64,000 bases of DNA from Escherichia phage vB_EfeM_pEP20, in the sequence record OQ743992, one strand, 5' to 3'. The notes under the pieces are model-generated. The model made no database searches. It saw nothing but the letters and a program-made list of their open reading frames with translations, and had not been told where the DNA came from. The position numbers and the translations under genes are program-made. Below, in pieces: positions 48,255 through 52,506 of the stretch; the first letter of the stretch is position 1, and the number at the start of each line of letters is the position of its first letter.

Positions 48255-48989
48255 TTATTTCTGTAATGCGTTCTTCATTTCTGGTGTTGCAATAGTGTCA
48301 ATTACACCAGTTTTACAAGCATCATCAAACCAGTCTGGTAAGATACCTGCTAAGAACCCATTGATATTCGTTTTAAGGTACTCTGCAATAAGGGCAGCTT
48401 CTTCTTCAATCATCTGCACAACTTCATCTGCATAAGCTGTAATCTTTGAGATACCTTCATTAATCTTGCTAACAGCTTGGTTAGCTAAATCAGAAATAGT
48501 ATCAAGACCTTTATCAATAGCATCTTGTAAGTCACTTAATACATCGTTAACACCGTCTAGTGCACTGTTAATTGTGTCAATAGCTTTTTGACCATATTCT
48601 GTAGCAACACCCATAATACCACTAAATGGTGTACAACCAACTTGCTCTCCTGCTGCACCCATAACATTGGAATATCCTTTTGCTACCTGCATACGTGATG
48701 AAAACTCATCAATGGACTTTTGACCGTAATCTGTCAGTGTCTTAGTGGTTGATGTAGTGCTTGTCAGACTCGTTGTAAAGCTGTTAAGCAGAACTGTTGT
48801 AAGTCCAGCGGCAACAAGTTTATCCTTTATTGTAGGGTCTGTTACAGAGCTAATAGAGCTTACAAGTGATGTAGAGGCAGCTACGGTTCCACCGAGAACT
48901 GCTGCACCAGTAATAAGGGGATTAGAAAACCCTCTACCGGTTTTTAAGAGACCAAAAATCTCCTTACCTTGTTCTGTCATCTCTTTCAT
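48255..48989 (-). CDS. hypothetical protein with hydrophobic segment and coiled-coil region, embedded in the tRNA array
   Basis: Start taken at ATG 48989 (MKEMTEQ...) behind AAAGGTG; the longer track start would overlap a tRNA-like gene. Confidence 0.45.
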   Translation of the reverse strand: MKEMTEQGKEIFGLLKTGRGFSNPLITGAAVLGGTVAASTSLVSSISSVTDPTIKDKLVAAGLTTVLLNSFTTSLTSTTSTTKTLTDYGQKSIDEFSSRMQVAKGYSNVMGAAGEQVGCTPFSGIMGVATEYGQKAIDTINSALDGVNDVLSDLQDAIDKGLDTISDLANQAVSKINEGISKITAYADEVVQMIEEEAALIAEYLKTNINGFLAGILPDWFDDACKTGVIDTIATPEMKNALQK

Positions 48990-49005
48990 TAAGCACCTTT
49001 GAAAT

Positions 49006-49080
49006 TGGTAGTTCAGTGGGATTTGAACCCTCTTCTCATGTTTTTCAGACACGCGCTTTAACCATATAAGCTACTTGGAC
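49006..49080 (-). tRNA. tRNA-like gene with Phe-type anticodon arm (GAA); acceptor stem does not pair, possible pseudo-tRNA
   Basis: Good D-arm (GCTT/AAGC) and anticodon arm (loop CTGAAAA), T-loop TTCAAAT, but 5' GTCCAAG cannot pair with 3' TGAACTA. Confidence 0.35.
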
Positions 49081-49440: not shown

Positions 49441-49998
49441 TTACTTTCTTAGTGGATGAATAAAGAATGCCAACATAACTCTTTCCCTTGAGAATGCTCT
49501 TTCTTCTGGGACAACACTTTTTAGTTTCCATCCAATATAAATTCTCCAGTAAAACTGTTTACCAAAGACTTTAATTGATGGGATAAAAGCGAATAATCCC
49601 CAAGCATTACTGTTCCACATTAGGAGATAACCAGTCTGATTATCTTCAGGGTCAGAACTTACGTTGATATTACCTTTCCACTTAGTAACATCTTTTACAT
49701 CTCTTCCTAATACATGGTAAGAGAAGTTATAAGCTTTGTTTCTCCAGAGCCATCCAACTCTCTGCATATAAACACCAAGCTTACCAATCTTTCTAATCTT
49801 AGCCCATCTCTCAACGTGGCCTTTGTCACCATCAATCGGGTTGTCATAGGTCTCCATCCATCTGAATCCAAAAGGTAGATGCCCTTTCTTCTCGCTGTAG
49901 AATGGAACCACAAATGGTGCTAAGATTACTGCTAAGATTGCTGCAAATGGTTCTAGCAAAGCTAGGAAAATCCATGAAGCATATTTTAAATATCTCAT
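49441..49998 (-). CDS. hypothetical membrane protein (185 aa) inside tRNA array
   Basis: N-terminal hydrophobic helices (IFLALLEPFAAILAVILAPFVVPF). Confidence 0.45.
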   Translation of the reverse strand: MRYLKYASWIFLALLEPFAAILAVILAPFVVPFYSEKKGHLPFGFRWMETYDNPIDGDKGHVERWAKIRKIGKLGVYMQRVGWLWRNKAYNFSYHVLGRDVKDVTKWKGNINVSSDPEDNQTGYLLMWNSNAWGLFAFIPSIKVFGKQFYWRIYIGWKLKSVVPEERAFSRERVMLAFFIHPLRK

Positions 49999-51249: not shown

Positions 51250-51339
51250 GGCGGTAAGTAAAGGAGTCGAACCCTCACCGTATCTCTACAGTGGCAACTG
51301 TTTTCAAGACAGTTTGGCTACCATTAGCCGCTACCTACC
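51250..51339 (-). tRNA. tRNA-Ser (anticodon TGA), class II
   Basis: Acceptor GGTAGGT/ACTTACC, perfect anticodon arm ACTGT-CTTGAAA-ACAGT, 20-nt variable arm, T-loop TTCGACT; CCA not fully encoded. Confidence 0.65.
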
Positions 51340-51352
51340 CCTAATAAGACTT

Positions 51353-51435
51353 TGGCATGGGACGGAGGAGTTGAACCACTTTGAAACGGTTTTGGAGGCC
51401 GTTGCTCATGCCTTAGAGTCTTAACATCGTCCCAT
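51353..51435 (-). tRNA. tRNA-like gene with Trp-type anticodon loop (CCA) and expanded 5' D region (atypical)
   Basis: Perfect 7-bp acceptor ATGGGAC/GTCCCAT with discriminator G and CCA; loop CTCCAAA on stem ACGG/CCGT; about 8 extra nt before the D-arm and a weak T-stem. Confidence 0.4.
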
Positions 51436-51587
51436 ACTTTAATTCGAAGCTTACCGTATTTTCGCAACACTGTAAAGCCCCTTCTCAGATTATTTACATG
51501 TTCTGGAAAACATGAGATACAGACCACCTCCTTACACGGAGACCCGATAAGGTCGTCTAAGCAATCTGCTAACTATTTGGCACACCC

Positions 51588-51664
51588 TACAGGATTCGAA
51601 CCTGTAACTAACGATTTAGAAGACCGTTGCTCTATCCAATTGAACTAAGGGTGCATTAATCTTT
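51588..51664 (-). tRNA. tRNA-Arg (anticodon TCT)
   Basis: Acceptor GCACCCT/AGGGTGT, D-stem GTTC/GAGC, anticodon arm ACGGT-CTTCTAA-ATCGT, T-arm ACAGG-TTCGAAT-CCTGT. Confidence 0.7.
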
Positions 51665-51991
51665 AAAGACTCTCTTAGAAAGCCCTTAAAGATGCCCACC
51701 TTATTAATCATACCGTGGGCTAGTACGCCAAATTCTTTGATGAGGGATTGGAAGACCTCACTGGTGTTTAGCCTATCAAGCTACTGCCAGAAAAACATTG
51801 TCGTTTGCATTTATTTTAAATTTGCAAAATAGACGCTACGCAACGAAAACTATTCAGAATATGTACAACAAATTTCCCCACATTGTGTTACGTCTAACGC
51901 TCATGTATTGGTGTTTGAATTATACATATTATGAATCATTTTTAGTTACTATAAAGCGGTCACATCTCAATGTCAACAACTTTATTGAAAT

Positions 51992-52067
51992 TGGTGCTGG
52001 TAGGTGGAATCGAACCACCGATATTCCCTTATCAGGGGAGTGTTATAACCTTCTTAACTATACCAGC
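51992..52067 (-). tRNA. tRNA-Ile (anticodon GAT)
   Basis: Perfect acceptor GCTGGTA/TACCAGC, D-stem GTTA/TAAC, anticodon loop CTGATAA, T-arm GGTGG-TTCGATT-CCACC. Confidence 0.7.
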
Positions 52068-52374: not shown

Positions 52375-52506
52375 CCAGACCGTTGTTTATCATCTTAAGT
52401 GCTACCATTACACCAACTCGACATCTGCCGAGTGAAGGAATCGAACCTTCGCCTTTTCTTTACCGGAGAAATAGATTGTTTAAAGTTTGCTGTAAACGGT
52501 CTTCTG
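52375..52506 (-). ncRNA. candidate Y-RNA-like ncRNA U1 with embedded tRNA-like module (YrlA-like architecture)
   Basis: Minus-sense 5' CAGAAGACCGUUUACAGCAAAC ... ACGGUCUGG 3' with termini pairing (AGACCGU/ACGGUCU); interior has hairpin UUUCU-CCGGUAA-AGAAA, T-arm GAAGG-UUCGAUU-CCUUC, closed acceptor-like hairpin ACUCGGC-AGAU-GUCGAGU, D-arm GUG-UAAUGGUAG-CAC. Confidence 0.5.

Follow-up and report, generated by a model that had tools for sequence, protein, structure and literature searches.

As a rule, two unpaired bases separate the acceptor stem of a transfer RNA (tRNA) from its D-stem, and the exceptions given in a review of non-canonical tRNAs are shorter connectors of 0–1 nucleotides (nt), found in the pyrrolysine tRNA, tRNA-Pyl (PMC7609411). 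Mukai et al. (2017) described another kind of departure, the 8/4 and 9/3 tRNAs (acceptor/T-stem base pairs), some of which lie in phage tRNA clusters and which are functional in E. coli; these first surfaced as weak matches to models of the selenocysteine tRNA (tRNA-Sec), carry long variable arms and have serine, histidine or alanine identities, with 8/4 tRNA-Ser and tRNA-His in phage clusters (PMC5389517). Here we describe an 83-nt tRNA-like RNA encoded on the minus strand, at positions 51353–51435 (read 51435 to 51353), of a 64,000-nt stretch of Escherichia phage vB_EfeM_pEP20 (sequence record OQ743992; hereafter the window), a Felix O1-like phage. Comparative sequence analysis suggests that the gene probably encodes a working, structurally non-canonical tryptophan tRNA, tRNA-Trp(CCA), reading UGG. 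An expansion of the D region of the kind seen in it is undescribed in the literature searched.

In the following, gene position p corresponds to window coordinate 51436 - p. The 5' half of the gene reads ATGGGAC GATGTTAAGA CTC TAAGGCAT GAG C AACGGC CTCCAAA on the minus strand, and the 3' half, after the loop CTCCAAA, reads ACCGTT TCAA AGTGG TTCAACT CCTCC GTCCCAT G CCA. Its parts are as follows:

51353–51435, minus strand: the whole candidate non-canonical tRNA-Trp(CCA) gene, with a covariation-supported cloverleaf and an encoded CCA end
51429–51435, minus strand: 5' strand of the acceptor stem, ATGGGAC, positions 1–7, pairing perfectly with 51357–51363
51419–51428, minus strand: extra connector GATGTTAAGA, positions 8–17, in place of the usual 2 nt; predicted to be mostly unpaired
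51405–51418, minus strand: D-arm, with a 3-base-pair (bp) stem (C18-G31, U19-A30, C20-G29) and the 8-nt loop UAAGGCAU
51385–51403, minus strand: anticodon arm, with stem 33–37/47–51, the mismatch C38.A46 and the 7-nt loop CUCCAAA
51393–51395, minus strand: anticodon CCA, predicted to read UGG (Trp); invariant in 54 of 54 copies
51364–51380, minus strand: T-arm, with stem 56–60/68–72 and loop UUCAACU; G57-C71 is replaced by U-A in relatives
51353–51363, minus strand: the acceptor stem's 3' strand GTCCCAT, then the discriminator G and an encoded CCA; without variation among the 16 unique full-length sequences

The D-stem CTC/GAG encloses the loop TAAGGCAT, which contains a GG motif and is nearly invariant. 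The anticodon stem can be written AACGG(C)/(A)CCGTT, with the C.A mismatch closing the loop, and the variable region is 4–5 nt, with no long variable arm. In divergent relatives the T-loop is UUCGAAU or UUCGAUU, which fits the pattern UUCRANY. A first-pass annotation made from the letters of the window alone had pointed to the perfect acceptor pairing ATGGGAC/GTCCCAT with a discriminator G and an encoded CCA, all of which are present, and to the loop CUCCAAA, which is identical to that of the E. coli tRNA-Trp sequence used for comparison. Its estimate that the D-arm begins about 8 nt late was roughly right: the D-stem starts at position 18 rather than the usual 10, and the extra length comes to 6–8 nt depending on how the D-stem is drawn, while covariance-model alignments gap canonical tRNAs by 6–7 nt. 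The T-stem that it called weak has the mismatches A56.C72 and U58.U70 in the window copy, leaving three pairs only, but the weakness is partly specific to this copy, as U58.U70 is G.U in most relatives; the constant A56.C72 mismatch limits the T-stem to 4 possible pairs in any copy.

The comparison drew on 54 copies, 16 of them distinct, from GenBank phages of three genera, IMG/VR contigs and metagenomes; the genera are Felixounavirus, Mooglevirus (Mordin, Sf14, Sf17, Sf18, Henu11) and Suspvirus (CHB7). Across the 16 unique sequences, six base pairs have changed on both sides with pairing kept, against none in all six controls in which the structure was slid along the alignment, and 89.6% of the cells are paired on the cloverleaf versus 29–50% in those controls. 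All seven acceptor pairs are kept in 16/16 unique sequences, including A1-U79, which alternates with G1.U79 among relatives. In the displaced D-stem U19-A30 becomes A-U in four of the 16, which belong to the Mooglevirus/Suspvirus group. The anticodon stem shows A33-U51 replaced by G-C, with G.U intermediates, A34-U50 by U-A, with one U.G intermediate, and both C35-G49 and G36-C48 by A-U. In the T-stem G57-C71 becomes U-A in Sf14, Sf18 and L030 alone. Two further copies, L040 and L044, have the anticodon-stem swaps without the D-stem swap, and L040 retains G36-C48; since the swaps in the three stems thus occur in differing combinations, more than one event is recorded.

Unpaired variable sites are anticodon-loop 32 and 38 and T-loop 57, 59 and 60, all of which vary in ordinary tRNAs too, so that across copies the anticodon loop reads C/U-U-C-C-A-A-A/C; U33, the anticodon CCA, A37 and, in the D-loop and T-loop respectively, GG and UUC are the same in every copy. 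There are no indels in 53 full-length copies, and beyond the two constant mismatches uncompensated changes are confined to the metagenomic singleton L041 and the U58.U70 variants. The argument rests on this pattern of change and not on its amount. Raw conservation of the gene relative to its flanks was discarded as evidence: the first such comparison was spoiled by non-collinear loci, and in collinear relatives the spacer is as conserved as the tRNAs. Conservation in about 229 phage genomes together with the covarying stems indicates that the stretch is not a chance resemblance to a tRNA, and it is very probable that it represents a selected, structured tRNA-like RNA of some function.

As for what that function might be, the elements by which bacterial tRNA-Trp is recognized, as summarized in a recent review, are G73, C34C35A36, the first acceptor pair and, as a minor element, G5-C68 (PMC9976931). 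In this conventional numbering all of them are present in the candidate: G73, at gene position 80 (window 51356), is invariant, C34C35A36 is the anticodon, the first pair is A1-U72 (or G1.U72), and G5-C75 of the gene corresponds to G5-C68. Given the complete set, charging by the host tryptophanyl-tRNA synthetase and reading of UGG are the natural expectation. The setting is in keeping with this. ARAGORN finds 26 tRNA genes in the window, all on the minus strand between 48081 and 53345, and these serve 19 amino acids, Trp alone being missing.

A second line of evidence comes from an alternative form of the locus. In 23 records of the same three genera the candidate is exactly replaced, from its first base to just past the CCA and between identical flanks, by a different 71-nt tRNA-Trp(CCA) followed by a gene for a 134-amino-acid (aa) HNH endonuclease (PHROG 2255, E = 3e-45; Pfam matches sub-threshold). 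Phages with this replacement include wV8, several O157 typing phages, BPS17L1, VpaE1_ev78, phiSUSP1, Sf19 and SFPB; the window carries the endonuclease-free form, and one or the other form is present in 252 of the 253 records that match the spacer. Both alleles have the anticodon CCA, the discriminator G and A1-U72. The presence at one locus of two very different sequences that are both of Trp type is independent evidence for a maintained Trp tRNA function. The arrangement also suggests that the HNH element homes into the locus carrying its own replacement tRNA.

The tRNA-Trp of the alternative allele (L002/L003/L004 1124–1194, minus strand) is itself atypical, its D-arm having a stem of 3 bp and a loop of 5 nt; abnormal D-arms are thus found in both Trp alleles of the group, one departing in the opposite direction from the other. 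The BPS17L1 and VpaE1_ev78 copies are called by ARAGORN, whereas the SFPB copy, in which one D-loop base differs, is not, and GenBank records label the gene tRNA-Trp, tRNA-OTHER, tRNA-Pseudo or tRNA-Leu, or leave it without a label.

The candidate form is found in about 229 GenBank phage records of the three genera and is unannotated, for instance in Felix O1 (NC_005282, 26533–26615) and Sf14 (MF327003, 16053–16135). The Felix O1 genome paper gives 22 tRNAs, with Trp not among its legible entries, and a 2025 study of tRNAs in the Moogle-like phage Sf14 arrives at 26 of them, serving 19 amino acids, with no discussion of one for Trp. Relatives whose GenBank records were annotated with tRNAscan-SE (Sf17, Sf18, CHB7, Sf14) have no tRNA at the locus, and none of the 40 listed GenBank records carrying the candidate has a tRNA annotation there. 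ARAGORN likewise leaves it uncalled both in the window and in isolation, even at a 90% threshold, and the Rfam tRNA model RF00005 gives no match at E<=10 even when a 238-nt stretch is searched alone; tRNA-Sec is its sole Rfam match, with 21.3 bits where the threshold is 47. Deletion of any 6-nt block within positions 9–19 results in a default-threshold ARAGORN call of a 77-nt tRNA-Trp(CCA), and this holds for the window, consensus and Mordin copies, which points to the extra D-region nucleotides as the reason for the non-detection by ARAGORN. The first-pass annotation had left a choice between a small insertion, an unusual tRNA and a manual misfold. The analysis bears out the first two and not the third, the comparative data agreeing with the annotated cloverleaf, including the displaced D-stem with its change from T19-A30 to A19-T30.

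The connector itself comprises 10 nt (positions 8–17) before the D-stem, or 9 nt if G8 pairs with C72, where a canonical tRNA has 2. Positions 8–17 are identical in every copy. Two of the copy collections had been selected by the sequence of the insert itself, and the invariance was re-tested with an independent 3' anchor and with a BLAST search using the 5' third of the gene. The anchor returned the same 25 IMG/VR contigs, with the connector identical in 25/25; the BLAST search, with positions 2–31, returned 229 GenBank records, 196 of them at 100% identity, and the listed examples of the remainder have one mismatch each, consistent with the compensated change T19A. By our hypergeometric estimate, the chance of finding none of the 10 connector sites variable, given 21 variable sites among 83 overall, is about 0.04, which makes the invariance a suggestive, not a strong, signal.

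Thermodynamic folding, for which the values from three other sequences were used (the window copy being unreliable, with U58.U70 forced to pair), predicts that positions 9–17 are mostly unpaired and that G8 pairs with C72 (probability of being unpaired 0.02–0.04), a base otherwise opposed to A56; the acceptor stem would then have 8 bp and the T-stem 4. In the Mordin copy the minimum free energy structure is this 8/4 fold; G8 and C72 never vary, which places the pair outside the reach of covariation. Drawing the D-stem in its ancestral register (11–13/30–32, with a 16-nt D-loop) was rejected, as that stem is broken in 4 of 16 sequences, the same four that carry A19-T30, and is 4–5 kcal/mol less stable.

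We consider it rather doubtful that the invariant 9–10-nt connector is a functional module which alters how host factors see the phage Trp-tRNA, as opposed to a tolerated insertion. Changes of the D-arm and position 9 in E. coli tRNA-Trp, namely the Hirsh UGA suppressor G24A and the A9 mutants, reportedly relax decoding, and by analogy with the Hirsh mutation one possibility is that the connector loosens decoding so that the CCA anticodon might also read UGA. There is no sign of UGA recoding in the window, where TGA ends 11 of 56 long open reading frames (ORFs) and the next stop follows within 0–12 codons. Another possibility is that the connector lets the tRNA escape a host tRNA-cleaving defense that attacks host tRNA-Trp. 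In either case it would be the first natural tRNA of a bacterial system for which a long acceptor-D connector had been shown to be compatible with translation. According to one paper, several tRNAs, tRNA-Trp among them, are nicked in the acceptor stem by the retron Eco2, from which most Felixounavirus species escape; as an explanation for the connector, escape from Eco2 is a lead only.

The origin of the connector is illuminated by the Erwinia phage phiEa21-4 (Kolesnikvirus, of the same subfamily Ounavirinae), whose canonical tRNA-Trp also lies in the tRNA cluster of a related phage. Comparison with related phages had been proposed in the first-pass annotation as a check, and a covariance model built from the candidate finds this tRNA as its best non-self match (41.5 bits, with a 6–7-nt gap in the D region). 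The two have in common a 15-nt anticodon-arm core, CGGCCTCCAAAACCG, which includes the C31.A39 mismatch (conventional numbering) and the loop CUCCAAA, as well as A1-U72, the discriminator G and the T-loop UUCGAAU, as in the Moogle-type copies. The phiEa21-4 tRNA, which RefSeq annotates as tRNA-Trp, differs in its length of 76 nt, its connector of 2 nt and its D-stem of 4 bp; the candidate, in turn, has about 7 extra nt, a re-registered 3-bp D-stem, another place in the cluster and an encoded CCA in place of TCA. GUUAA of the candidate (positions 11–15) aligns with the 5' strand of the phiEa21-4 D-stem and the start of its D-loop, and the candidate has about 7 additional nt (GACUCUA) ahead of the GG motif. 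We infer that an insertion in the D-loop supplied a new and stronger 5' strand, CUC (18–20), which would pair with GAG (29–31), and that the former 5' D-strand was left as part of the 9–10-nt connector, where it would probably be looped out.

No intermediate forms were found among 113 viral contigs that share the anticodon-arm core; these yielded only canonical 72–80-nt Trp genes, chance matches in coding sequences and Felix-type copies. A search of 185,579 bacterial and archaeal species genomes did not find the 3' part of the gene, which implies that the gene was not borrowed from a sequenced host. In an unrelated viral contig (L125, IMG/VR 3300045391_000883, about 1690–1790) a tRNA-Trp-like gene that ARAGORN leaves uncalled has about 17 nt inserted in the T-loop region (…GGGGGTTCGGCGGCGGAGCCGCGTCCCTCC…) and may likewise be a non-canonical or interrupted tRNA-Trp of a phage.

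Several observations weigh against a working tRNA-Trp. The data set has little depth (effective sequence number 1.14 in the covariance model build), and the compensated changes reflect only a few events, some of them perhaps spread by recombination; at such a depth it is just weakly significant that the anticodon and the extra segment do not vary. The overall conservation of the gene is no higher than that of the neighboring spacer. Every tRNA detector tried rejects it, as do, by omission, the tRNAscan-SE-annotated relatives, and the window copy combines the A.C and U.U mismatches of the T-stem with the C.A mismatch closing the anticodon loop. The review of non-canonical tRNAs gives exceptions of 0–1 nt only, none with a connector of 9–10 nt (PMC7609411), and one so long could disturb the tertiary core around U8, A14 and position 9.

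Much of this would also be expected of a decaying tRNA-Trp pseudogene, inactivated by the insertion and persisting through the close kinship of the phages: rejection by the tRNA finders, the T-stem and anticodon-stem mismatches and conservation no better than that of the adjacent spacer all fit such a history, as do the presence in the cluster of at least one other degenerate tRNA-like remnant and the labeling of the alternative allele as pseudo or 'other' in some GenBank records. We nevertheless regard decay as quite improbable, as six pairs are compensated on both sides against none in the shifted controls, only the L041 singleton and the U58.U70 variants break pairs besides the two constant mismatches, and the gene is kept in three genera and about 229 genomes without indels; further, the C.A mismatch recurs in the canonical phiEa21-4 relative. 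A tRNA-shaped RNA kept for a job other than decoding accommodates the covariation equally, since that shows that the fold is selected and not that the RNA is charged. Such jobs might include an RNase P/RNase Z processing mark in the operon, a decoy or sponge for a tRNA-targeting defense or a tRNA-binding protein, or the DNA target of the homing endonuclease of the alternative allele. The locus is a presence/absence site of the HNH cassette, an invariant extra segment would suit a specific binding site, and neither the ribosome nor EF-Tu might tolerate the expanded D region. A non-decoding role nonetheless seems to us on the unlikely side: the complete Trp identity set and the anticodon are retained, the allele that replaces the candidate is likewise a tRNA with a Trp anticodon, Trp is the sole amino acid missing from the cluster, the variable positions match those of decoding tRNAs, and a mere processing signal would need no CCA, G73 or fixed anticodon.

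The misfold envisaged in the first-pass annotation, whether a canonical tRNA with other boundaries or a selenocysteine-type tRNA, is highly improbable and can be set aside. Its one attraction is that tRNA-Sec is the sole Rfam match, but the score is less than half the threshold, the anticodon is CCA and not UCA, the D-stem has 3 bp against 6 bp, and the 4–5-nt variable region is no long variable arm. Covariation supports the cloverleaf as drawn, and neither ARAGORN nor Rfam found a canonical cloverleaf with different boundaries; the lone ARAGORN call, at a relaxed threshold of 80%, built its acceptor stem from artificial padding and is an artefact. It is scarcely credible that the stretch is part of a small protein-coding gene. 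A 67-aa ORF (51324–51527, minus strand) is indeed present in the window and several records annotate a 'hypothetical protein', but this reading is refuted by in-frame stops upstream of the candidate in most relatives, the ORF extends into tRNA-Ser, and the substitutions are paired in the manner of helices rather than concentrated at third codon positions.

If the candidate is a working tRNA-Trp, it would be transcribed with its neighbors in a minus-strand tRNA operon, and the host's tRNA-processing enzymes would cut it out of the multi-tRNA transcript, the gene itself supplying the CCA end. The host tryptophanyl-tRNA synthetase would then charge it, and it would read UGG in translation. The tRNA set of the phage would thereby be completed for all 20 amino acids. 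In the folded molecule G8 would possibly extend the acceptor stem to 8 bp beside a 4-bp T-stem.

The 1.4-kilobase stretch around the gene matches 282 phage records at 80–99% identity, mostly Escherichia, Salmonella and Shigella Felixounavirus and relatives. The candidate lies in a 239-nt gap between two tRNA genes, and its surroundings include:

51578–51654, minus strand: tRNA-Arg(TCT), 142 nt upstream of the candidate and in the same orientation (ARAGORN and Rfam)
51250–51339, minus strand: tRNA-Ser(TGA), 13 nt downstream of the candidate and in the same orientation (ARAGORN)
51948–51976, minus strand: putative strong promoter of the sigma-70 type, TTGACA-17-TATAGT, with tRNA-Arg(TCT), the candidate and tRNA-Ser(TGA) downstream of it

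The promoter-like site agrees with the consensus at 11 of 12 positions, as a consensus match only, and no terminator-like site was found between it and the candidate. By its sequence it would be the transcription start of the unit that contains the candidate. A site directly upstream of the candidate (TTTACA-17-TAAGCT) was rejected by the promoter scan, which only 51976–51948 passes. The spacer upstream of the candidate, which in collinear relatives is about as conserved as the tRNAs, contains a strong Shine-Dalgarno-like AAGGAGGTG (51533–51525, minus strand) before a 7-codon mini-ORF at 51513–51490 (minus strand) that reads ATG TTT TCC AGA ACA TGT AAA TAA and overlaps a hairpin CATGTT/AACATG (51514–51497). 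The neighboring tRNA-Arg(TCT) also differs among relatives, in blocks that lie only in its anticodon arm and resemble paired stem swaps; the cluster may in general harbor allelic tRNA variants of this stem-swapped kind.

Elsewhere in the cluster, a second sub-threshold tRNA-like element at 52426–52490 (minus strand) scores 24.7 bits with the Rfam tRNA model, for which the threshold is 29. Its T and anticodon arms are perfect, but position 33 is a C, the acceptor stem is degenerate and the D region very short. Directly after it, at about 52398–52421 (minus strand), comes the apparent 5' half of another tRNA (GTCGAGTTGGTGTAATGGTAGCA). Both lie in the 455-nt gap that separates tRNA-Lys from tRNA-Asp and are probably remnants of tRNAs. 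Weak Rfam matches to transfer-messenger RNA (tmRNA) and permuted tmRNA at 51655–52050 (minus strand; 15–25 bits, the threshold being 47 bits), like a 'tmRNA*' that ARAGORN calls across several tRNA genes in Mordin (L001 1697–2446), are most likely artefacts of tRNA-like ends. Two gaps of the window cluster hold protein genes, one matching the domain of unknown function DUF7338 (49441–49998, minus strand; E = 3.5e-62) and the other DUF7217 (48255–49052, minus strand; E = 1.3e-89). In relatives, other inter-tRNA gaps hold different endonuclease-type genes in different phages:

L023, 105–518: endonuclease-type gene in a gap
L024, 106–519: endonuclease-type gene in a gap
L022, 1860–2345: endonuclease-type gene in a gap
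L025, 740–1081: endonuclease-type gene in a gap
L003, 1338–1685: endonuclease-type gene in a gap
L157, 1–116 and 604–996: endonuclease-type genes in gaps

The annotations of these gap genes are HNH in PHB11 and Felix O1 (ORF44/45), PD-(D/E)XK in CHB7 and endonuclease VII-like in VpaE1_ev78, and no more than hypothetical protein in pEC-M719 and Henu11. The tRNA cluster thus looks like a hotspot for mobile endonucleases.

If the gene works, Felix O1-like phages carry tRNAs for all 20 amino acids and not the reported 19, and a full set bears on why phages encode tRNAs at all, whether in replacing a degraded host pool or in evading defenses. Felix O1 is a classic phage, heavily used in Salmonella typing and biocontrol, and the gene exposes a blind spot in standard tRNA annotation. 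It would be a natural tRNA that tolerates a large insertion in its structural core beside the D-stem, which would be of interest to tRNA structural biology and to the engineering of orthogonal tRNAs. Its either/or relation with the HNH-linked tRNA-Trp further provides a tractable system for homing endonucleases that travel with a replacement tRNA.

Among known unusual tRNAs, tRNA-Pyl and tRNA-Sec resemble the candidate in being functional tRNAs whose connector or D-arm departs from the norm of 2 nt and 3–5 bp (PMC7609411). They differ in that the connector is shorter (0–1 nt) or the D-stem longer, whereas the candidate has a 9–10-nt connector and a sense anticodon, and is without a dedicated synthetase or elongation factor. 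With the 8/4 tRNAs the candidate shares a non-canonical cloverleaf and a weak match to the tRNA-Sec model and, with some of them, a location in a phage tRNA cluster; the energy calculations favor an 8-bp acceptor stem with a 4-bp T-stem for it. Its 8/4 pairing, however, is a prediction only, and it is without the long variable arm and the long D-stem with a tetraloop of the 8/4 tRNAs and allo-tRNAs; Trp identity is unreported for that class, and a long acceptor-D connector is not one of its features. The Hirsh and A9 mutants are, like the candidate, CCA-anticodon tRNA-Trp altered in the region of the D-arm and position 9, on which decoding accuracy depends in the E. coli tRNA, but they are point mutants where the candidate has a 7-nt expansion. 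As for the locus as a whole, free-standing homing endonucleases occur in phage tRNA clusters (e.g. T4 SegB), and the alternative allele is comparable to such systems in the presence or absence of an endonuclease in a tRNA cluster, with the adjacent tRNA swapped as well; its putative homing enzyme is HNH and not GIY-YIG as in T4 SegB.

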